Origin: Escherichia phage vB_Eco_CWW26
Sequence record: PQ900155.1
Length of the DNA stretch: 48,021 nt
Direction: 5' to 3' (one strand)
Each line of letters opens with the position of its first letter. Position 1 is the first letter of the stretch. The notes under the pieces are model-generated. The model had not been told where the DNA came from, did no database searches, and was given only the letters and a program-made list of their open reading frames with translations. This document shows, piece after piece, positions 10,463 to 48,021 of the stretch. Position numbers and translations under genes: made by a program.

Positions 10463-12043
10463 ATGTTTATAGAAAAAGCAAAAGAAATACATAAAGGAAA
10501 ATATGACTATTCCAAAGTGGAATATGTAAACAACAAAACACCTGTGACGATAGTTTGCCCGGTGCATGGCGATTTCGTTCAACTACCACAGGGACACCTG
10601 AAATGCGAAATAGCGTGCCCAAAATGCAGAATCGACGACGTTTATGACCGAATGATACAACAGGCGCGAGCGATTCATGGTGACAAGTACTCATACGTCC
10701 GGGAATCGTTCATTTCCGTAGTCAAGAAAATGTCCATAGTGTGTCCGGTACACGGGGTGTATTACATGACACTGAATAACCACGTTCACGGGGGTGCGGA
10801 GTGTAAACCCTGCGCACTGGCAAAGCGTGGTGAGTTACACCGAAAGACACTTGATAGTTTTGTAGAAGACGCGAAAAAAGTTCATGGTGACAGGTACGAT
10901 TATTCCAAAGTTGTTTACGAGGGTAACAAAAAGAAAATAACCATCACTTGTGCAAAACATGGTGACTTTAAACAGGAACCATCTTCACATCTTTCAGGAA
11001 GAGGTTGTCCAAAATGCGGCCTTGAGTCAAGAGTAAGCAAAAGCATGAGTACTCTTGAAAGATTCATTCGCAAAAGCAGAGTCATACATGGTGATAAATA
11101 CGATTATTCCAAAGCGGTGTATAAAGGTAGTGACCAAAAATTAACCATAATTTGTCCGGTACATGGTGAATTTTCCCAATACGCAAACAACCACTCTACT
11201 CTTGGCCATCAATGCCCGACGTGTTCTAAAGCTGGTGTGTCCCGGGGTGAATTTGAAGTCTTCAACTTCGTCCGTTCCATCTGTCCCGATGCGGTACAAT
11301 CTGACCGTACAGTCATTGGACCGCTGGAACTTGATGTTGTAGTGCCGTCGCGCAATCTGGCAATTGAATTTAACGGCCTGTACTGGCACGATGAACGCAC
11401 GAAAAACAAGAAGTATCACATCACCAAGCGTCACCGCGTGGAAGCCGCAGGATACCGTCTGATAAGTATCCGTGAGGATGTCTGGAATGAGCGCCGCGAA
11501 CAGGTGGAAAGTATCATTCGCAACGCACTCGGCGTGACATCCGACAAAGTGTTTGCCCGCAAATGTAATATCGTGGAAGTTTCGACGTCTGAAGCGAAGG
11601 TATTTATGGAGAAACACCACGTGCAGGGTTTCCGGGGTGCGACCGTACATTATGGTCTGCAACACGATGATACATTAGTCGCCGTAATCAGTCTGACAAA
11701 CTGGCAGAAAAAGAATGAGTGGGAACTGGTACGATATGCAACCGCGTGTAATGTTCCGGGTGGACTGTCCCGCCTGTGGAAACATGCTACCACGGTTAAC
11801 AACATTGTCCGTGCCTATTCATACGTTGACCGGGATTTGTTCAGTGGTTCCGGTTATATTAATGCCGGTTTCACACTTTCAACCACGACAGTGGGGTTCA
11901 GGATTGTAAATGGTTGCACAACCGAATCGCGTGAGAAGTGGAACCGCGCACCAGATGAAATGACACAGACGCAATGGTACGAATCAGAAGGTGTATCACG
12001 CATCTACGATTCTGGACAGGACAAGCTGTTATGGGTAGAATGA
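10463..12043 (+). CDS. free-standing homing-endonuclease-like protein (4 zinc-ribbon repeats + Vsr/PD-(D/E)xK-like C-terminal domain)
   Basis: Four repeats of HGDKYDYSKV...CP.HG.F...H..G..CPKC; C-terminal LDVVVPSRNLAIEFNGLYWHDE; AT-rich codon usage; AAGAGGAG SD; inserted between capsid terminator and next structural gene. Confidence 0.55.
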   Translation: MFIEKAKEIHKGKYDYSKVEYVNNKTPVTIVCPVHGDFVQLPQGHLKCEIACPKCRIDDVYDRMIQQARAIHGDKYSYVRESFISVVKKMSIVCPVHGVYYMTLNNHVHGGAECKPCALAKRGELHRKTLDSFVEDAKKVHGDRYDYSKVVYEGNKKKITITCAKHGDFKQEPSSHLSGRGCPKCGLESRVSKSMSTLERFIRKSRVIHGDKYDYSKAVYKGSDQKLTIICPVHGEFSQYANNHSTLGHQCPTCSKAGVSRGEFEVFNFVRSICPDAVQSDRTVIGPLELDVVVPSRNLAIEFNGLYWHDERTKNKKYHITKRHRVEAAGYRLISIREDVWNERREQVESIIRNALGVTSDKVFARKCNIVEVSTSEAKVFMEKHHVQGFRGATVHYGLQHDDTLVAVISLTNWQKKNEWELVRYATACNVPGGLSRLWKHATTVNNIVRAYSYVDRDLFSGSGYINAGFTLSTTTVGFRIVNGCTTESREKWNRAPDEMTQTQWYESEGVSRIYDSGQDKLLWVE

Positions 12044-14824: not shown

Positions 14825-14853
14825 AGTATATCAATGATTGACGTACTCGTCAA
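14825..14853 (-). promoter_or_regulatory. sigma70-like promoter, palindromic -35 (leftward)
   Basis: Minus strand TTGACG-agtacgtcaatcattga-TATACT (17-bp spacer); palindrome TTGACGTACTCGTCAA 14838-14853 straddles the repeat boundary. Confidence 0.6.
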
Positions 14854-15143
14854 CACCTCATTTTACCCCGAAATACCCGAGCTATCGGGGTGGTGAATTT
14901 ACATTCACAATCATAGGTTTACGCGCATAACCGAAAACCCCGTACATTCTTCCCTTCTTCCTTCTTATAAACCTTATAAACTATACATTATGTATTATAC
15001 TACATTTATACTATATATTATATACTTTCTATTACTACTAATTACTATTTTATAAGGGTATAAGGGTAATAAGTAGTATAGTACTGAAAGGTAAAGAGTT
15101 TTTGATACCCCGATGAAGTACCCCGAACGACTTTCAACGGGGT
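14844..15143. repeat. 300-bp direct repeat, copy B
   Basis: Matches 1-300 by eye; flanks diverge immediately outside. Confidence 0.9.
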
Positions 15144-31574: not shown

Positions 31575-31916
31575 CTACCCGTAAGGCTTCCACACGACCA
31601 CGGATGCTTTTTCGCATTGCCTTACCATATCCGCAGTCCCATTACCGCCGGGAAACGCAACACAGTAATCGGGTTTTCCAAAGTTTAACATTGCCCAATT
31701 TCGTTTCGGTCCGGCCCCTTTACCATGTGCATTCCACAGGGCATCCATTCTCATAACGAACACGCCGTGTTTCTTAGCCCACATGTCAGCGATGCTATCC
31801 GCACCTCTCGCACCACCGTGGATAATTAGTTCAATTTTGAACGGCAACATCTCCATAGCTTTTTCGAACGCATCAAAATCCGAATAACCCCGCCCACCTG
31901 TTATGAGAACTTTCAT
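31575..31916 (-). CDS. SLOG/DUF2493-like Rossmann-fold protein
   Basis: LITGGRGYSD...HGGARGAD...AFPGGNGT pattern; ATGA overlap with the polymerase gene. Confidence 0.45.
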   Translation of the reverse strand: MKVLITGGRGYSDFDAFEKAMEMLPFKIELIIHGGARGADSIADMWAKKHGVFVMRMDALWNAHGKGAGPKRNWAMLNFGKPDYCVAFPGGNGTADMVRQCEKASVVVWKPYG

Positions 31917-34027
31917 TTTGTGACCCCCAACAACGGCAGAACTAACTTTTCCGCTTCCTGAATGTACCAGTCATAATTTAGTGCACCCCAGTCAAAATCC
32001 TTAGCGTCGGCACACTCTGTCACCTTCCATCCTACATACATCCCGGTTTCACGCACTGCATCATGCTTGCTGCGGCTTTTCGTGTGGATACGCTCGTCCC
32101 ACGGTGTGCCGATGCTGTCGAGTTCTCCAGGTTGACCGGTAATCTCACACATTACCTCGTTGTACACGTCGTCCTTGATACCATTCTTACGCTTCCATGT
32201 GCCCGGTACACCGGTTGGCGGTAACAGCTTAACCAGTGACCCACCATTACGCGAGATAAACACACGTGTGGTATTCTGCATCTCCTGTTCAGCACCCCAC
32301 TCAGGCCAACGCATGACCAGACGTGCGCTTCTGGGCACCTTAGCACGTAGCATAAAGTCGAACGGGTCACGGTGCTGTGTGATGAATGTGCGAATGTCCA
32401 CACCGTGTACGAGGGCTGCTTCAGCTGCGCGGGCAACAATCATCGCCGATGGGTCCTGATGCCACTGGTAATTGTACTCGTAAGCGCCTTTACGCTTGAT
32501 TTTACCGTCCGTACCAACCTGAATATAGTTGTTCACATCTCGCTGATAAACCGAGGCGATATCCTCGCATTCCAGATTCAGTTGTGTGACATCCATCCAC
32601 CACTGACACACATTGTCAACGTGTTCCAGGCATTGCGCCGGGTGGTGCAGGATGAGGCCATCGGTGTTAGTCTGCACGATGGTCATCTGTGGGACTTTAC
32701 GCAACTGTTCGACCAGCATCGCCATACTCAACTGACCAGTAATGGTAATGCTCAACAGACATTTGTGGTCACAGAAAGGGCTGAAGCGACTACCCATATT
32801 CCCGAATGTACCGTTTAGTGCTAGTTTGAGCGTGGCATCGACTACCTTATCACCCGCACGCTTTGCATCACGGCGGCGAAAAAATAACTGTTCGTACACA
32901 TCGCAAAATGTTTCACCAAGGTGCTCGGGATAGTACCGGTTTTTAATGGCGAGCGACGGATACAGACTTGTCACATCGCGCGCGCTCATAACGAAACCGT
33001 CACCGGATTTATAAATGCAGTTCGGAATCCCACTGTGGATACCACCCAGCCCGAATGTATATTCAATACCATCAACAGTGGCGACCATGTCACTAAATAC
33101 GCCTTTGGTGGTCAGTAATTCATCCTGTTGCTTTTTGGTCAACACTACCGATTTCATTCTGTTCATGATATCGGTGAACTCTGTTGTCTCCAGCTTGACA
33201 TATGGAGGAATCACATCGGTGAGCGCAATACGTTCACGAATGGTTACCCCGGAGCAATCTACCCCGGCCTTTTCCAGTTCGTGAACGAATATATCTTTGC
33301 CGATTTTTGTATCGGCGTGGTTCATAAAGTTACGTCCGTATTGCTTTGTCAGTTCCTCGCGGAAATGAATTTTGTCGAGTGAACGTACAAAGAATTTAAG
33401 TGTTTCGCGAACGTCGTGCTTGTTGTATGCGATGAGAATGTCTTTCTGCTGGTCGTTTAGCACCATTCCGACCGGGAATGGCAGGTCTTTTACGTTAGGG
33501 GACTGCATACCCACTTCTAACGCCTTCAGACTAGTGCGTCGGGCTTTATTATCGAAGTGGTTTATTTTGTACAGATCAATCTGCTCGAAAATCTGGTCGC
33601 GGTCCCATATAATTTCTGGCCACTGACCTTCGGGCTTAATCTGTGATTGCGCTTTTGCGTAAATCTGTTCCAGTGTACAACCCGGTGCATTGACCACGTA
33701 GTGCAGCACTGGATAGTCGAATGCCAGGTTATTAAATCCAATCCCACGGGCCTTACTACGTCCCAGGTTGAATACGAATTCGATTAATTGCGACTGCTCG
33801 TTTTTGCGGTCACTGATTTCGAAGATTAACTCCATACCCGTCGCAGCGTGAATAAATGAGGCGGTGAAGATGTTAGGATATGTTTCGATGTCCCACCCCC
33901 AGTCCCGCGGGTCCAGTGGTGCGATGCTGGAGAACGCCGAATCAGCCCCACAGTGGGGGCAATTGTGGAGGTCAGCGGGATAATTTTTGCCACACGTTGC
34001 ATCCTCGCATTTTGATAAATAGTGCAT
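31913..34027 (-). CDS. DNA polymerase (family-B-like motifs, N-terminal zinc ribbon)
   Basis: Exo DxE WGWDIETYPN; motif A DVTSLYPSLAI; motif B-like KLALNGTFGNMG; TDG. ATG at 34027 with GGAGAGGA SD (ORF track starts TTG 34057). Confidence 0.65.
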   Translation of the reverse strand: MHYLSKCEDATCGKNYPADLHNCPHCGADSAFSSIAPLDPRDWGWDIETYPNIFTASFIHAATGMELIFEISDRKNEQSQLIEFVFNLGRSKARGIGFNNLAFDYPVLHYVVNAPGCTLEQIYAKAQSQIKPEGQWPEIIWDRDQIFEQIDLYKINHFDNKARRTSLKALEVGMQSPNVKDLPFPVGMVLNDQQKDILIAYNKHDVRETLKFFVRSLDKIHFREELTKQYGRNFMNHADTKIGKDIFVHELEKAGVDCSGVTIRERIALTDVIPPYVKLETTEFTDIMNRMKSVVLTKKQQDELLTTKGVFSDMVATVDGIEYTFGLGGIHSGIPNCIYKSGDGFVMSARDVTSLYPSLAIKNRYYPEHLGETFCDVYEQLFFRRRDAKRAGDKVVDATLKLALNGTFGNMGSRFSPFCDHKCLLSITITGQLSMAMLVEQLRKVPQMTIVQTNTDGLILHHPAQCLEHVDNVCQWWMDVTQLNLECEDIASVYQRDVNNYIQVGTDGKIKRKGAYEYNYQWHQDPSAMIVARAAEAALVHGVDIRTFITQHRDPFDFMLRAKVPRSARLVMRWPEWGAEQEMQNTTRVFISRNGGSLVKLLPPTGVPGTWKRKNGIKDDVYNEVMCEITGQPGELDSIGTPWDERIHTKSRSKHDAVRETGMYVGWKVTECADAKDFDWGALNYDWYIQEAEKLVLPLLGVTK

Positions 34028-34245: not shown

Positions 34246-34391
34246 CCCCGTGTATACTCCGTATCATTTGTTTTATTTAACCCATTCTGGTTAATGTATT
34301 CCCGGCGTTGCTCCTGCACCTGTTTAATAGCCTTTTCCAGTTCGGCTAACTTGTCATCAAACTGTTTCAGTCGTTGGTCGTGTTCGGTCAT
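34242..34391 (-). CDS. hypothetical small coiled-coil protein (49 aa)
   Basis: Hand-translated MTEHDQRLKQFDDKLAELEKAIKQVQEQRREYINQ...; ATG overlaps the exonuclease stop. Confidence 0.3.
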   Translation of the reverse strand: MTEHDQRLKQFDDKLAELEKAIKQVQEQRREYINQNGLNKTNDTEYTRG

Positions 34392-34921
34392 AATTTCACC
34401 CCGTGCTTTTCACAAATTTCAATTAAGTGCCACGCTTGCGTGCGAGCGTCATCCAACGCATTATGATGCGTACCGAAACGGTCGCACTTAACGTCTGGAA
34501 ACAGCGATTTCATTGTGCGATAACAACGGTCATTCCAGAATTTCCACGGTTGGTTTTGACCGCATTTACGATATGCAGCACTGAGAATGGTGTTATCGAA
34601 TGCAGCACCGTTCCCCCACATCTGAACATCGCCGAATTTTTCCAACCAGGTTGCAAAATCATTAAGAACGGTTGCGAGAGATTGGGCTTTTTCGTTGTTC
34701 TCAAATGCAGCACGTGCGGCATCGGATTGTTGCAACCACCACAGCACTGTAGAAGTGTCCATTTCAAGTCCCTGACGCACTGAGCTATCAAGCGACACTT
34801 GCGCATAAAACCCTTCTTGCTCAACATTCTGAGCATCAAAAATAACCGCACCAATGGCAATAATTGCTGCACGATTACCGTTGCCCATTGTCTCAAGGTC
34901 TAACATGCAATGTTTCATCAT
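34388..34921 (-). CDS. 3'-5' exonuclease (DnaQ-like DEDD family)
   Basis: N-terminal MLDLETMG (Exo I D-x-E) and C-terminal HNALDDAR (Exo III). Confidence 0.6.
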   Translation of the reverse strand: MMKHCMLDLETMGNGNRAAIIAIGAVIFDAQNVEQEGFYAQVSLDSSVRQGLEMDTSTVLWWLQQSDAARAAFENNEKAQSLATVLNDFATWLEKFGDVQMWGNGAAFDNTILSAAYRKCGQNQPWKFWNDRCYRTMKSLFPDVKCDRFGTHHNALDDARTQAWHLIEICEKHGVKL

Positions 34922-34964
34922 CTCTCCGGATTAAATTACCCCGGCTCGCACCGGGGCGTTGTAG

Positions 34965-35768
34965 TTATGCTACTTTCTGACAGTGTTGTGCGATTAACTC
35001 TTCGCTCCAGCCTGGCATATTGAGCAACTGTGCTTTGGTATACACCGCGCCGTTGTAGCTGTACTTCTCTTCGACAACCGGCGGCGGTGTTACTAACAGG
35101 TCAGTTGCTGGCGGCGGTGTTGCAGGTGCCGGAGCAGCCGGAGCCGGGGTTGGAACAGGTGCGCCGCCGCCGAATACACTTGCCGCATCCGGACCGCTGC
35201 CTTCACGAACAATCGCTTCACCGGGGCGTGACAGTTCGAGCAGGTTTGGGTTCAGATATACGCCCGGAGACTTTGCTGGTTTATTGCCTTTAGCCACGAT
35301 ATTTACGCGTACATAGTCACCCAGCTTGATAGCGTTTGCGTCCTGAATTGCGTCCAGCGGGCTATATTTGCCAACGTGGTAGCAGTTGTAGGGAATTCGA
35401 GTATTAAGATGTAATACCCAGTGGCCGCGTTTGTAAGGGTCACTATTAGGAACATTACCTTCCTTGTTGGGAATGTCGCTATCGCCGTCAACTACCTTCC
35501 ATGAGAAATCGTTACGACGGGTCATTGCCTCATCGTAACCATGTTCAGCATCCAGTGCCGCCATGACGATTTGTTTGCCCCATTCGGTATCTTTCCAGTC
35601 TGCTTCACCAGTTTTAGGAATTGCAATACCGATGTAAATTTCCTTAACTGGCTGACCATCTTTACCGATGACCGGCTGTTTTGTGACTTTATCGGTGCGT
35701 ACATTTTGCTTCAGCGGGTGACCATGAATCAGACGAGCAACAGGGGTAACGAAAGTAAATTGAGCCAT
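34965..35768 (-). CDS. putative ssDNA-binding protein (DUF2815-like) with Pro/Ala-rich linker
   Basis: Position next to the Cas4-like nuclease; linker PVPTPAPAAPAPATPPPA; family from memory only. Confidence 0.35.
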   Translation of the reverse strand: MAQFTFVTPVARLIHGHPLKQNVRTDKVTKQPVIGKDGQPVKEIYIGIAIPKTGEADWKDTEWGKQIVMAALDAEHGYDEAMTRRNDFSWKVVDGDSDIPNKEGNVPNSDPYKRGHWVLHLNTRIPYNCYHVGKYSPLDAIQDANAIKLGDYVRVNIVAKGNKPAKSPGVYLNPNLLELSRPGEAIVREGSGPDAASVFGGGAPVPTPAPAAPAPATPPPATDLLVTPPPVVEEKYSYNGAVYTKAQLLNMPGWSEELIAQHCQKVA

Positions 35769-35822
35769 CTTGTAAATCCTCTCTGCTAAGTGTGGGAGAC
35801 CCTCTGTCTCCCGGTGATTTGA

Positions 35823-35851
35823 ATACTACGTTGGTTTGACGAGTACGTCAA
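35823..35851 (-). promoter_or_regulatory. sigma70-like promoter, palindromic -35 (leftward)
   Basis: Minus strand TTGACG-tactcgtcaaaccaacg-TAGTAT; palindrome TTGACGAGTACGTCAA 35836-35851; 5'UTR hairpin GGGAGAC-N5-GTCTCCC. Confidence 0.55.
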
Positions 35852-35854
35852 CAA

Positions 35855-37030
35855 CTATTTTCGGGAAAATACATTTTTAATTGCACGTTCATCGACCTGT
35901 TCCAGCTTGACACCTGTCACAGGTGTTTCGGAGTACTGCTCAATAATGGACGGGTCGATACCTTTTTTGACACACTGTGCGGGTGTGTCCAGTTCCTGCG
36001 GCTTACGAAGATTCTGACCGAGTAAATCCCCCATCATAATCACCTGGTCAACCGGAACATCTTTCTTCCAGCGCTTACGACCGTATGTGGTTTTGGCGCT
36101 ATAGAATGTCACGTGTTGCCCCTGCTTAATCTCGTGCAGTGCCTGTTCCTCCAGACCACTGAGACGCATTTTAATCATCTCCTGAGCACGCTGCAGGAGT
36201 CGCAATTCAACACCCAGGGCATGACCGGACAGGTTGTGCGTCTGTAACGACTGCACGTAGTCCACACCGGCATAACTTTGTTGCTTCAGCGTGTCACAGT
36301 GTGCGCGTGCGCTACAGTCGAGACAGTGTGGCCCCGGCGTACACATCGGCGCGGTGTCCAGCACGCGGGGCATCGTCTCGTTCACCTGCTGCCGGTATAC
36401 ACACAGTTCATCGTATGTGAGCGCCCATTTGCGTACCGTACCGTCACTGGTGAATCCGCGAGGCTGCACGATGACCAGTTCAATAACGTCCGGCGGCGTC
36501 TGGAATTGCTCACAAATACTGAACGCTTCAATCAATAGCTGCCAGTTTTCAAACGGGTCAACAATGCGATGACCGAATTTAGCGTCCCAGACACGTAGTA
36601 CCTTTTCTTCCGGTACGTACACCCACGCGTCAGGAATACAGTACCAGTCGCCGTAACCCGGGACGGGACACGCTTCCTCAACGTGAAGTCCCTGAGTGCA
36701 GTCATGACTGTTACAGTAACCCCACACCTCGTTAAAATACTCACGAGCGGCGTCAAACAGTTCATCCGTGATAACAATTCCATCCTTTGACAGACTGCCC
36801 ACCAGTTCACCAAACGGCTCATTACGGAACAGTTTCTGAGCCACTTCGTGACATGCCCGGCCCTCTAGCCGGGATTGTGACGGTTCGACGTCCAGTGGTG
36901 GATAAGCCTGCTGCGCACGGAACGACCCGTTACAGTTCATCCACGTACCAGCGTCGGATACTTTGGGTAAATTAGTCATGTTTACTCCAACCCATCCATT
37001 ACGACCAGACGCAATCCCGCAATTAGGCAA
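35855..37030 (-). CDS. Cas4-like PD-(D/E)xK nuclease (DUF2800-like) with C-terminal Cys cluster
   Basis: Cys cluster CTPGPHCLDCSARAHC near the C-terminus; adjacency to the SSB-like gene. Confidence 0.45.
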   Translation of the reverse strand: MPNCGIASGRNGWVGVNMTNLPKVSDAGTWMNCNGSFRAQQAYPPLDVEPSQSRLEGRACHEVAQKLFRNEPFGELVGSLSKDGIVITDELFDAAREYFNEVWGYCNSHDCTQGLHVEEACPVPGYGDWYCIPDAWVYVPEEKVLRVWDAKFGHRIVDPFENWQLLIEAFSICEQFQTPPDVIELVIVQPRGFTSDGTVRKWALTYDELCVYRQQVNETMPRVLDTAPMCTPGPHCLDCSARAHCDTLKQQSYAGVDYVQSLQTHNLSGHALGVELRLLQRAQEMIKMRLSGLEEQALHEIKQGQHVTFYSAKTTYGRKRWKKDVPVDQVIMMGDLLGQNLRKPQELDTPAQCVKKGIDPSIIEQYSETPVTGVKLEQVDERAIKNVFSRK

Positions 37031-37315: not shown

Positions 37316-38350
37316 TCACTCCCCCAAATGCGCTTTAACACGTGCCACAAACGGACCGATTTTATCCGGGTGGGCGTTCAGTTCCTGCACCGACGACATA
37401 CCGTCCTGCGCCAGCAGCGTGTTCACCGTTGCCACATCAATCTTACCGTGACGCTCGGTCAGGAAGGTCATGAGGCGTGGGAAGTCCCAGTCGGTTACTT
37501 CCGGTACAGGCGGTGCAACAACTACCGGCGGCGGTACAGGTTTCTCGTATGCAGGAGCACCACCGTGACCATTTTCACACGTTACGCCGCTGGGCGATGA
37601 AAATTGAGGTTTCATGCACACTGAACACAGGTCACCAGTTTCAGGATGTGTCACTTCCGATTTCCAGTCATCAGTAGGAGGCGGCACAGGAAGTGGCGGA
37701 ATACCTGCAACGGTCTGCTCGGTTACCACGCCAGCGTCAGTGTGGAAGTCATCGGCCGGAGGTGTTACCGATGGTTCAGGAGTGACGCAAATATGTGGAG
37801 TTCCGTGATGGTCACAACCTTCATCAATGCACAATTCTTCACCGGATGGTGTCACCGGTACAGGTTCTTGAGGGAAACGTAATTCATCCTGTACTCGCTG
37901 AATAGTTGCCGCCCACTGCTCCTCATCCATGCCCTTCGGCTTACGACGCAGACGCCACGTACCGTCCGCATTAAGCGCCTTACTGGTGGAGTGGATACGC
38001 TCGTCCCACGGTGTACCGGTTGAGTCGGTAGTGGGTGGGTCGATATCCGGTTTAACTGGTACGCACAATTCAACCATTTCGCGAGTTACTTCAATACTTC
38101 TCCCGTCACGGGGAGCCAGCGACTCAACCTGTTGAGCAGTCGTGTCGACTTCCGGCTCATCCATCATTTGTGGCGCGGATTGTTGCAGTAATTCAGTGCT
38201 GATAACCAATGGGGTTACGGTCACATCGACTGGGTGACCATCTTTTTTGCTGGCAATTTCGATAAGCGCTTTACCGAATTGAAGCAATGCGATGGTATCG
38301 TCGTTCGGGATGGTTAAAGTGATAAGGTTGGTCATTGTTCTACGCTCCAT
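37316..38350 (-). CDS. modular Pro-rich zinc-binding replication-module protein
   Basis: 344 aa; Cys/His clusters CIDEGCDHHGTPHIC and CSVCMK...CENGHGG; contains GTPWDERIH also found in the polymerase C-terminus. Confidence 0.5.
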   Translation of the reverse strand: MERRTMTNLITLTIPNDDTIALLQFGKALIEIASKKDGHPVDVTVTPLVISTELLQQSAPQMMDEPEVDTTAQQVESLAPRDGRSIEVTREMVELCVPVKPDIDPPTTDSTGTPWDERIHSTSKALNADGTWRLRRKPKGMDEEQWAATIQRVQDELRFPQEPVPVTPSGEELCIDEGCDHHGTPHICVTPEPSVTPPADDFHTDAGVVTEQTVAGIPPLPVPPPTDDWKSEVTHPETGDLCSVCMKPQFSSPSGVTCENGHGGAPAYEKPVPPPVVVAPPVPEVTDWDFPRLMTFLTERHGKIDVATVNTLLAQDGMSSVQELNAHPDKIGPFVARVKAHLGE

Positions 38351-47924: not shown

Positions 47925-47954
47925 ACTATAAAATAATAGAGAATTACTCGTCAA
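47925..47954 (-). promoter_or_regulatory. sigma70-like promoter, half-palindrome -35 at repeat boundary (leftward)
   Basis: Minus strand TTGACG-N18-TATAGT; -35 is the first 10 nt of repeat copy C; the second half-site is absent here. Confidence 0.45.
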
Positions 47955-48021
47955 CACCTCATTTTACCCCGAAATACCCGAGCTATCGGGGTGGTGAATT
48001 TACATTCACAATCATAGGTTT
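47945..48021. repeat. start of 300-bp repeat (wrap-around copy of 1-77)
   Basis: 47945-48021 matches 1-77 by eye; implies a 47,944-bp circular or permuted unit. Confidence 0.9.

Follow-up and report, generated by a model that had tools for sequence, protein, structure and literature searches.

The DNA polymerase of phage T7 (gp5), a family A enzyme, carries a thumb insertion that binds thioredoxin, and this insert docks the host processivity factor as well as the acidic tails of gp2.5 and gp4. Replisome recruitment motifs include the beta-clamp-binding peptide QL[SD]LF, the PIP box, and the C-terminal tail of SSB. The C-terminal domain of Redbeta and lambda Orf bind lambda Exo and the C-terminal peptide of Escherichia coli SSB (PMC6393309), and in RecT/Redbeta, it is the C-terminal regions that provide the coupling surfaces for the exonuclease and the host SSB tail (PMC6393309; PMC13490951). 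In clamp-less phages of the group with DUF2800, gp2.5-like, and polymerase genes, replisome organization and its coupling to exonuclease/annealase recombination are poorly understood. Here, we describe a module found in two proteins from one operon of such a phage, Escherichia phage vB_Eco_CWW26 (PQ900155.1; "the window" is the whole stretch analyzed, 48,021 nucleotides). Gene product names are those of Escherichia phage ZCEC13 (Jedunavirus). The features discussed are as follows.

31913-34027, minus strand: gp61, family B DNA polymerase with exonuclease motifs, DVTSLYPS, TNTDG, and an N-terminal four-Cys element.
32045-32218, minus strand: thumb insertion of gp61 (residues ~604 to 661), with a GTWKRK hairpin and helix (DDVYNEVMCEI), a linker, and the PWDERIHTKSRSKH loop.
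32084-32110, minus strand: GTPWDERIH codons in gp61 (24-nt identity at 32084-32107).
34388-36979, minus strand: operon downstream of gp68 (gp66, gp65, and gp64).
34388-34921, minus strand: gp64, Rv2179c-like DEDDh exonuclease.
34965-35768, minus strand: gp65, gp2.5-like SSB/annealase.
35855-36979, minus strand: gp66, DUF2800/PD-(D/E)XK exonuclease.
37316-38335, minus strand: gp68, three-part protein, mostly disordered (pI 4.6; 12% Pro; PHROG 11133, function unknown).
37319-37498, minus strand: C-terminal four-helix domain of gp68 (residues ~280 to 339), nearly invariant in the alignment (AF2 pLDDT, 88 to 93).
37871-38041, minus strand: module of gp68 (residues ~99 to 155; 63-protein consensus), with the PWDERIH loop, a Gly-Trp basic beta-hairpin (DGTWRLRRK), and a short helix.
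37991-38017, minus strand: GTPWDERIH codons in gp68 (24-nt identity at 37991-38014).

When the whole window was scanned, the plus-strand string GTGGATACGCTCGTCCCACGGTGT occurred at exactly two sites, 32084-32107 and 37991-38014, with no third site at up to 3 mismatches and no matches in 100 dinucleotide shuffles. Both copies are coding on the minus strand, where the 24 nt specify TPWDERIH in gp61 and in gp68; the Gly codons differ (GGC versus GGT), so that the DNA identity covers 24 nt and the peptide identity 9 amino acids. GTPWDERIH spans residues 640 to 648 of the annotated 704-amino-acid gp61 (650 to 658 of its 714-codon open reading frame) and residues 107 to 115 of the annotated 339-amino-acid gp68 (112 to 120 of its 344-amino-acid open reading frame). 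The original prediction had reported an identical 24-nt segment shared by the polymerase and a Pro-rich 344-amino-acid protein, with the peptide at the open reading frame positions given above and within a wider match, DS(I/T)GTPWDERIH(T/S)xS(R/K); each of these statements was confirmed. Nucleotide similarity between the two loci reaches 37 nt (86% identity), with the 24-nt core identical. In a six-frame translation of the window, the pattern W[DE]xR[IVL]H occurs only at these two copies.

Two explanations had been offered for the repeat, a common docking peptide and a recent recombination. The DNA identity is not trivial, since eight identical codons for one peptide have a P of ~0.0013 under the window's own codon usage; this would fit a tract that recombined or was converted between the two genes, in which case the shared peptide would result from the shared DNA and not be its cause. 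Codon identity is also in excess within Jedunavirus (~7 of 10 shared residues versus 3.7 expected, in genomes that are non-independent samples), which leaves room for an old micro-conversion, and the residue before Pro in Jedunavirus gp68 is Thr, as in polymerases, where most small proteins have Leu. However, the identical tract is only 24 to 28 nt long and is bounded by conserved residues with unrelated codons, the conserved flanking Ser being encoded by AGC in one copy and by TCA in the second (different at all three positions). The copies in relatives differ from each other by 0 to 4 synonymous changes and are not homogenized within genomes (mean mismatches, 1.23 for within-genome pairs and 1.41 for cross-genome pairs; permutation p=0.27), and lineages outside Jedunavirus have no codon excess (30 of 61 codons identical versus 25 expected). 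The two copies likewise have an identical core in 3 of 15 related genomes, with 1 to 4 synonymous differences in the others, so the DNA identity is not special to this genome. Moreover, hundreds of lineages keep the peptide unchanged over differing DNA; the core is written in 10 codon variants in polymerases and in 59 in small proteins. Neither identity extending into the flanks nor within-genome homogenization, the hallmarks of recent conversion, was found; recent recombination is thus not supported, and we consider conversion of any age very improbable as the source of the shared DNA, a very old tract of at most 30 nt in the Jedunavirus ancestor being possible. An invariant peptide and narrow codon choice, and not ongoing DNA exchange, account for the 24 identical bases, and short exact DNA repeats between genes can therefore come about without recombination. 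A DNA-level element (binding site or structured RNA) was rejected on the basis of the 10 and 59 core codon variants and the position of both sites inside open reading frames.

The family B assignment of gp61 agrees with its 3'-5' exonuclease motifs and polymerase motifs A and C (WDIETYP, NNLAFDYP, YNKHDV, DVTSLYPS, and TNTDG), with its match to PHROG 1252, "DNA polymerase" (E=3.7e-200), and with its AF2 model (pLDDT, 91.7), which matched archaeal PolB structures down to E=9e-16 (Foldseek). In an alignment of 14 polymerase C termini, the 9NA and L089 polymerases have nothing that corresponds to residues ~606 to 658, i.e., gp61 has, like T7-type polymerases, a thumb insertion that homologous polymerases lack. 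The insertion is ~55 to 65 amino acids long and is modeled at a pLDDT of 82 to 91. Its motif, G-x-P-[WHY]-D-x-R-I-H-T, is kept in polymerases down to ~50% identity, with substitutions of W by H or Y, of E by A, T, or P, and a WDERVC variant. Given these tolerated substitutions and the folded thumb setting, the polymerase motif could be mainly structural.

In gp68, an N-terminal strand-helix element is followed by the module and by the C-terminal helical domain. The protein matches PHROG 11133 (E=1.4e-89), an unannotated cluster for which Pfam, NCBIfam, and literature searches returned no function, domain description, or publication. Its module lies between disordered, Pro/Ala-rich linkers in the AF2 model, in which the hairpin (residues 119 to 129) and helix (138 to 153) have pLDDT values of 65 to 78 and the motif loop falls below ~55. 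The gp68 family has the same plan, with the PWDERIH loop, hairpin, and helix at the center between low-complexity flanks, together with the N-terminal strand-helix element and the C-terminal helical domain; among 149 diverse module proteins (iterative HMM search), 119 have the C-terminal domain and 61 the N-terminal element. All 120 gp68 homologues contain the motif, in which W, D, R, I, and H are invariant and which is more strictly conserved here than in the polymerases. A Foldseek search of the gp68 model against PDB gave no fold match with E<1, and a search of PDB plus BFVD returned only uncharacterized orthologues, a weak negative given that 51% of the model lies below a pLDDT of 50.

On profile evidence, the homologous unit around GTPWDERIH is a mini-domain of ~55 to 60 amino acids, of which the peptide is the core, and not a 9-residue linear motif. 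The module comprises a loop (D-x-x-G-x-P-W-D-E-R-I-H-[ST]-x-x-[KR]), a basic Gly-Trp beta-hairpin, and a short helix; in 63 diverse viral proteins, conservation extends across ~45 columns and the consensus at the loop end reads H-[SA]-x-x-K. Profile-profile comparison (hhalign) of the gp68 module gave E=2e-10 against the polymerase motif and, across 64 columns, E=6e-12 against the polymerase. The hairpin and helix alone matched polymerase residues ~601 to 636, upstream of the motif (E=1.4e-5), and gave no significant match to the segment downstream of it (E=0.16); the same two elements are thus found in the polymerase and in gp68, in swapped order. The polymerase motif region (residues 630 to 654) was also matched by the PHROG 11133 profile. 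From sequence and DSSP patterns only, we infer that the two folds are equivalent. The docking peptide of the original prediction was, on this evidence, right in direction but too modest, since the peptide is the core of a mini-domain, folded in the polymerase thumb, and not a short linear element.

With the 61-amino-acid gp68 module as the query, phmmer retrieved 1198 protein clusters (50% identity) at E<=1e-3. IMG/VR held more than 120 loci with PWDERIH and more than 120 further loci with PWDARIH, although these scans selected exact motif variants and so inflate the apparent invariance. Cultured phages with the module (133 records) have alpha-, beta-, and gammaproteobacterial hosts. A relaxed core, [WFYH][DE]xR[IVLM]H, was present in 143 of the 149 representatives, one of them containing it twice, and two-module proteins also occur. 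A scan of 185,579 species genomes gave 105 matches, near the ~200 expected by chance (our estimate), and only 12 were true modules, mostly on MAG contigs. The module is essentially absent from bacterial chromosomes, and a cellular origin was rejected on these counts. No Pfam family matched gp68, eight module segments, or the 149 representatives, except for one exonuclease fusion; the module itself had no Pfam match at E<=10 (including Mago-bind), no NCBIfam match, and only unknown-function clusters among PHROGs, and our literature search found no paper containing "PWDERIH." Known domain families were rejected by these scans, and the module is, as far as database searches reach, previously undescribed.

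The gp68-type gene heads a DUF2800 exonuclease/gp2.5-like SSB/polymerase operon on more than 100 viral contigs from phages of Proteobacteria, divergent from an SF2 helicase gene. Among 102 module open reading frames, the DUF2800 gene was downstream of 80 and the SSB gene of 68, and the divergent SF2 helicase was upstream of 77. The module open reading frame often abuts the DUF2800 gene; in this phage, an extra small gene, gp67, lies between the two. Elsewhere, the module is fused to Rv2179c-like DEDDh exonucleases or forms a C-terminal extension of RecT (contig L032), where it adjoins a DUF3799 exonuclease gene.

We consider it probable, if only just, that the homologous module in gp61 and gp68 is a portable docking handle for one conserved ligand at forks or on single-stranded DNA. 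Docking onto a partner is what we infer from the architecture. The handle would bring the polymerase, the recombination adaptor, RecT, and the exonuclease, enzymes that act on single-stranded DNA, to a common and very conserved ligand, and the place of action would be the fork or resected ends. In gp68, the setting resembles a tether, with disordered flanks, a low-confidence motif loop, and N- and C-terminal elements common to the family. The ligand may be a host factor, for which the C-terminal tail of host SSB is the first candidate, or DNA itself. Either is more likely than a phage protein, because the module occurs in a temperate RecT phage with no PolB, DUF2800, or gp2.5-like gene on the available 5.3 kb (part of the phage only) and because the module core is invariant while phage SSB tails vary. 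At least four tail types were seen on gp2.5-like SSBs (GWT[DE]-type, ...MPPR, acidic ...ADELFG, and ...DRIPF) while the small-protein motif stays PWDERIH, and phage 9NA has the common SSB tail and a polymerase without the insert; the gp2.5-like SSB tail is accordingly disfavored as the ligand. No T7-like acidic C-terminal tails were seen on the helicase, primase, and nucleases of the window.

Alternatively, the module may be a small nucleic acid-binding element that has no protein partner, one that would lengthen the polymerase thumb for a grip on the primer-template duplex and would anchor the gp68, RecT, and exonuclease proteins directly on DNA. All of the fusion partners are DNA enzymes, the thumb is the DNA-gripping domain of family B polymerases, and DNA, being the one ligand that every host and context has in common, would account for invariance across phages of alpha-, beta-, and gammaproteobacteria. 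Conservation includes basic and Ser/Thr positions (R, H, [ST], and K/R at +10, and W-[RK]-x-[RK]-[RK] in the hairpin), and backbone contacts with DNA could come from the hairpin, which is basic, and from the HTKSRSKH loop. However, neither version of the module is net basic (pI, 5.7 in gp68 and 6.1 in the polymerase insert), so protein docking fits better than plain DNA binding; three invariant residues of the module are acidic, as is gp68 as a whole, strongly so. RecT and exonucleases bind DNA by themselves, the module in RecT takes the position of the Redbeta protein-docking domain (PMC6393309), and the low confidence of the motif loop in gp68 alone (AF2) is what segments that fold upon a partner typically show. 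We therefore regard a purely DNA-binding role as unlikely, though still credible.

A third possibility is that gp68 mimics the thumb insert or competes with it, taking the site used by the insert or docking on the polymerase and so regulating the activity of the polymerase or the way in which recombination and replication hand over to each other. Such a role would suit the homology of the gp68 module to a polymerase-internal element, the shared operon, and the stricter motif of the small protein. It is at odds with the gp68 family's occurrence beside insert-less polymerases (9NA and BcepB1A type) and beside the family A polymerase of Mulvp2, in which the same insertion is absent, as well as with its occurrence in a prophage-like RecT setting whose available sequence has no PolB; the two copies also show no within-genome co-variation. 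We consider it improbable.

Within the docking-handle reading, the module may more specifically be a receptor, specific to phages, for a hub of replication that is universal among hosts, with SSB as the candidate, a proposal that we hold as doubtful. Domain shuffling would then have spread the module to the polymerase thumb, the RecT annealase, the DEDDh exonuclease, and a dedicated adaptor. If so, thousands of phages of Proteobacteria would plug their replication and recombination enzymes into SSB-coated single-stranded DNA (of host or phage) by a new class of SSB interaction domain, and whether a phage polymerase or recombinase suits a given host would follow a general rule. More broadly, should the module bind a host factor, it might account for the host compatibility of phage polymerases and recombineering proteins, and it might find new use as a portable recruitment tag. 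It offers a concrete handle on the replisomes of clamp-less phages, with a single bait peptide, few invariant residues, and the insert-less 9NA polymerase as a natural control.

Among known systems, the Mago-binding hairpin of PYM (WIBG; 1rk8 chain C), which is protein-docking in PYM, resembles the module hairpin (RPDGTWRKARRVKDGYV versus K-x-x-N-x-DGTWR-x-RRGV-D). The likeness covers the hairpin only, without the PWDERIH core, and is a lead only; the best PDB sequence match was 1rk8_C at E=0.13 over 21 residues, which does not support membership in the Mago-binding domain family (PF09282). The Redbeta C-terminal domain has the same C-terminal position as the module in the RecT fusion of contig L032, where an exonuclease gene adjoins, but it is a three-helix bundle, in contrast to the loop, hairpin, and helix of the module, and neither Foldseek of the gp68 model against PDB (E<1) nor a profile search of PDB sequences matched the Redbeta C-terminal domain/Orf fold. 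Like the module, replisome recruitment motifs place one element on several DNA metabolism enzymes, often beside disordered linkers, and lead to one hub, a role that for the module is proposed here. These motifs are peptides of 5 to 8 residues, whereas the module is a mini-domain with a hairpin and a helix; on inspection, its conserved columns fit neither the beta-clamp QL[SD]LF nor the PIP QxxLxxFF consensus, and if its ligand is the SSB tail, it would act as the receptor of the pair, not as the tail. The thioredoxin-binding domain of T7 gp5 differs from the gp61 insert in belonging to a family A polymerase and in its unrelated sequence, and while the gp61 insert is homologous to a free-standing module, the T7 domain is not known to have such a homologue. 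Both are lineage-specific elements of tens of residues in the thumb of a phage polymerase, absent from related polymerases, and the T7 thumb insertion may serve as the closest working analogy.

The window is 100% identical to the complete record of Escherichia phage ZCEC13, a Jedunavirus (NC_071140.1/ON086804.1), whose gene numbers are used here. Both copies of GTPWDERIH lie within one leftward operon (gp69, gp68, gp67, gp66, gp65, gp64, gp63, gp62, gp61, gp60). A rightward operon diverges from it, with an SF2 helicase (gp74), a nuclease (gp76), and an NrS-1-like primase/DUF5906 helicase (gp79). Leftward-operon features used here were as follows.

37316-38335, - strand: gp68, hypothetical protein
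gp66: DUF2800/PD-(D/E)XK exonuclease
34965-35768, - strand: gp65, gp2.5-like SSB/annealase
gp64: Rv2179c-like DEDDh exonuclease
31913-34027, - strand: gp61, DNA polymerase

The 24-nt segment GTGGATACGCTCGTCCCACGGTGT, originally predicted to be identical at the two loci, occurred exactly twice in the window (32084-32107 and 37991-38014), with no third site allowing ≤3 mismatches and 0 matches in 100 shuffles. Both copies read GTPWDERIH on the - strand (polymerase, DSIGTPWDERIHTKSR; gp68, DSTGTPWDERIHSTSK), and nucleotide alignment of the loci extended the likeness to 37 nt at 86%. No other site in a six-frame translation of the window matched W[DE]xR[IVL]H. The predicted coordinates and residue numbers were right for the long open reading frames (ORFs). 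Counted on the annotated proteins, which start where the homologue consensus does, the motif occupies residues 640-648/704 (polymerase) and 107-115/339 (gp68).

Other repeats in the record were an exact 300-nt direct repeat (1-300 and 14844-15143) and an 87-nt direct repeat (10883-10969 and 11087-11173; 74% identity, 204 nt apart) within a 526-aa ORF (10463-12043), which points to a repeat inside the protein. The record ends share an identical 77 nt (1-77 and 47945-48021), resembling the overlap that an assembler run at k=77 leaves on a circularised contig, in which case the genome proper would be ~47,944 bp.

Given the codon usage of the window, two copies of one peptide would share all eight codons with P ~0.0013, so recombination was worth testing. 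Searched for in IMG/VR as degenerate DNA, PWDERIH was encoded at >120 loci, with 10 codon versions of the core in polymerases and 59 in small, gp68-like proteins; the window's CCG-TGG-GAC-GAG-CGT-ATC-CAC was the commonest or joint commonest in both. Where both copies were compared (15 genomes), the 21-nt core held 0-4 synonymous differences (0 in 3/15). Mean mismatches were 1.23 for within-genome pairs versus 1.41 for cross-genome polymerase-i/gp68-j pairs, which was not significant (permutation p=0.27). Codons at shared residues were identical in 125/198 cases versus 76.7 expected (23 genomes), an excess confined to Jedunavirus genomes, which are mutually related; nine more distant lineages gave 30/61 versus 25 expected. 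The conserved Ser immediately upstream is encoded differently in the two genes (AGC versus TCA). Recent recombination, proposed in the original prediction, was therefore rejected: there is no recent or ongoing exchange between the polymerase and gp68 copies. One old conversion tract (≤30 nt) in the Jedunavirus ancestor would be compatible with these data and would alter no later conclusion.

The motif belongs to a module, a mini-domain of ~55-60 aa comprising a motif loop with the PWDERIH core, a basic Gly-Trp beta-hairpin, and a short helix. The motif was present in 120/120 gp68 homologues retrieved (down to ~52% identity), which were mostly variable outside it. Beyond Jedunavirus, tblastn with gp68 gave short matches limited to residues ~90-165, in unrelated phages (PTXU04, Pondi, Mulvp2, Proteus PM-CJR, Burkholderia BcepB1A, and Aeromonas KLEA5), and the module gene was directly upstream of DUF2800, SSB, and polymerase in 4/4 loci examined (Mulvp2, PM-CJR, BcepB1A, and PTXU04). 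Sixty-three dereplicated viral proteins, with Pro/Ala-rich sequence on both flanks of the module, gave the consensus (L/V)-D-x-x-G-(L)-P-W-D-E-R-I-H-(S/A)-x-x-K-x-x-(N/T)-x-D-G-x-W-(R/K)-x-(R/K)-(R/K)-G-V-D-...-V-x-A-E-L, in which core invariance is partly circular, as the set was picked by exact core. A search unbiased by the motif (phmmer, 61-aa gp68 segment against 1.84 billion cluster representatives) yielded 1198 clusters at E≤1e-3; among the best 150, nearly all were 115-470 aa long, cores varied as PWD[EAKSQDG]RIH, and a few proteins held two copies. Such proteins (P0324, P0361, P0329, and P0267), whose second copy has often degenerated (PWDARIN, PWDVRIH, PWNSATH), suggest tandem duplication. 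The module was found in 133 cultured phage records, with alpha-, beta-, and gammaproteobacterial hosts. It is essentially a phage feature, because across 185,579 species genomes the pattern occurred at about chance frequency and 12/105 matches were true modules. No matching model was found in Pfam or NCBIfam, PHROGs places gp68 in cluster 11133 (function unannotated), and the motif string was in no paper within the library searched.

When the small-protein module was compared profile to profile with the polymerase alignment, the motif aligned at 96.9% probability (E=2e-10); a more permissive alignment reached E=6e-12 over 64 columns. Without its motif, the hairpin-helix of the small proteins matched polymerase residues ~601-636 (PGTWKRKNGIKDDVYNEVMCEI; E=1.4e-5), which lie upstream of the motif, and not the segment downstream (E=0.16), so the polymerase holds both elements in swapped order, for which tandem duplication could also account. 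Alignment of 14 polymerase C-termini placed hairpin-helix and motif loop in one insertion of ~55-65 aa, bounded by ...LPPTG and a GW-x-V-x-EC hairpin. The polymerase model (mean pLDDT, 91.7; pTM, 0.86) resembles archaeal family-B polymerases, and its insertion is predicted to be folded in context, given a pLDDT of 82-91. Polymerase cores are looser (PHD, PYD, QWDARIH, WDERVC, WNPAIH) than the small-protein cores of the same genomes, and no co-variation of the two copies within genomes was seen. In the same alignment, polymerases of Salmonella phage 9NA and contig L089 were without the insertion; 9NA gp68 (L380 3507-4301, +; annotated hypothetical) is a gp68-family protein with a variant module (GLRHDPRIHTDSKSINKGDGLWRQRKK) and divergent core (GLRHDPRIHT...GDGLWRQRKK). 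That this family also occurs beside polymerases lacking the insert weakens the reading of gp68 as a mimic or competitor, a role we consider improbable.

Residues 1-26 of the polymerase (33949-34027, -) carry a nearly invariant four-Cys element (C7, C12, C23, and C26; CEDATCGKNYPADLHNCPHCG) that resembles a zinc ribbon preceding the exonuclease domain. In many Jedunavirus relatives (L013, L045, L063, L080, and L103; phage records such as JD001, FZ14, and BUCT_49532), the polymerase is divided between two ORFs, one of 507 aa and a C-terminal one of 194-238 aa that carries the thumb insertion with motif; the annotated phage records place HNH or T5orf172 endonuclease genes there.

The gp68 model is mostly disordered (pLDDT <50 for 172/339 residues), with an N-terminal helix, the module (low-confidence motif loop, then hairpin 119-129 and helix 138-153, pLDDT 65-78), and a confident C-terminal helical domain (280-339, pLDDT ~90). 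Among 149 diverse module proteins, the C-terminal domain recurred in 119 and the N-terminal element in 61; thus, the small proteins are one family with a three-part architecture. As predicted, gp68 is Pro-rich (12%); it is acidic (pI 4.6), and pI values of the module (5.7) and polymerase insert (6.1) are near neutral. Residues ~169-255 (37571-37829, -), a region variable among homologues, hold two Cys/His clusters (CIDEGCDHHGTPHIC and CSVCMKPQFSSPSGVTCENGH) and a small hairpin predicted by AF2 (243-253), and may form a putative lineage-specific zinc-binding insert.

Around 102 small module ORFs (first IMG/VR set), DUF2800 was next downstream on the same strand in 80 (gap ≤10 nt in 44), a divergent SF2 helicase was upstream in 77, a gp2.5-like SSB was found in 68, and PolB was within reach in 36. 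The module is also fused to an N-terminal Rv2179c-like DEDDh exonuclease (Mulvp2, P0367, L072, and L118) and, in contig L032 (2943-4292, -), to the C-terminus of a RecT annealase (Pfam RecT, E=1.6e-51), with a DUF3799 PD-(D/E)XK exonuclease, RdgC, and integrase as neighbours; no PolB, DUF2800, or gp2.5-like gene was seen in the available part of this contig. In a Marichromatium prophage-like region and in L303, it is fused to uncharacterised N-terminal domains; in Marichromatium gracile DSM 203 (L144 2115-3521, -), it sits on a PHROG 3657 domain in the position of RecT in L032, and both regions share the order DUF3799 exonuclease, annealase::module, RdgC-FtsK-gamma. Related loci carried at least four types of phage SSB tail while the module core was constant.

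In gp65 and its homologues from L002-L124, the C-terminus is a Pro/Ala linker plus a conserved ~25-aa tail, Y(T/S)x(E/A)Q(L/F)xxxGW(T/S)(D/E)xxLxxxGxM, not the acidic ...DDDIPF type, and is probably a partner-recruitment tail. Other tails in related loci were ...PGMPGxMPPR, acidic ...SADELFG, and ...DRIPF.

A portable homologous mini-domain is thus common to a polymerase thumb, a disordered adaptor heading an exonuclease/annealase/polymerase operon, and the C-termini of a RecT and an exonuclease. The docking peptide originally predicted survives as docking, putative and plausible, but not as a mere peptide, given the hairpin-helix homology alongside the motif. The module would act as a docking handle bringing ssDNA-processing enzymes to one shared ligand, which is plausible because its setting is tether-like, with linkers on both sides, it is occasionally duplicated and near neutral in charge, and its fusion partners bind DNA on their own. 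A precedent for docking is the thumb insert of T7 polymerase. The RecT fusion argues likewise, as its position is that of the surface coupling Redbeta and other RecT proteins to exonuclease and host SSB tail (PMC6393309; PMC13490951). The constant core against varied SSB tails, and the RecT phage with no PolB, DUF2800, or gp2.5-like gene in its available sequence, favour a host factor or DNA over a phage protein as the ligand; the first candidate, tentatively and at fairly low probability, is the host SSB C-terminal tail. The main rival, in which the module would bind DNA directly as a thumb extension, fits the thumb location and the conserved basic and Ser/Thr positions, yet we consider it rather unlikely.

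As a docking handle, the module is closest in working to recruitment devices such as the T7 thumb insert, clamp-binding or PIP motifs, and SSB-tail receptors (Redbeta CTD), and belongs to none of these types, as it shares neither their sequence nor their fold hallmarks. The Mago-binding hairpin of PYM faintly resembles the module hairpin (E=0.13), a lead rather than evidence. With an unannotated PHROG as its only database home, what is new is an undescribed mini-domain that doubles as a polymerase thumb insertion and would serve as a shared recruitment module.
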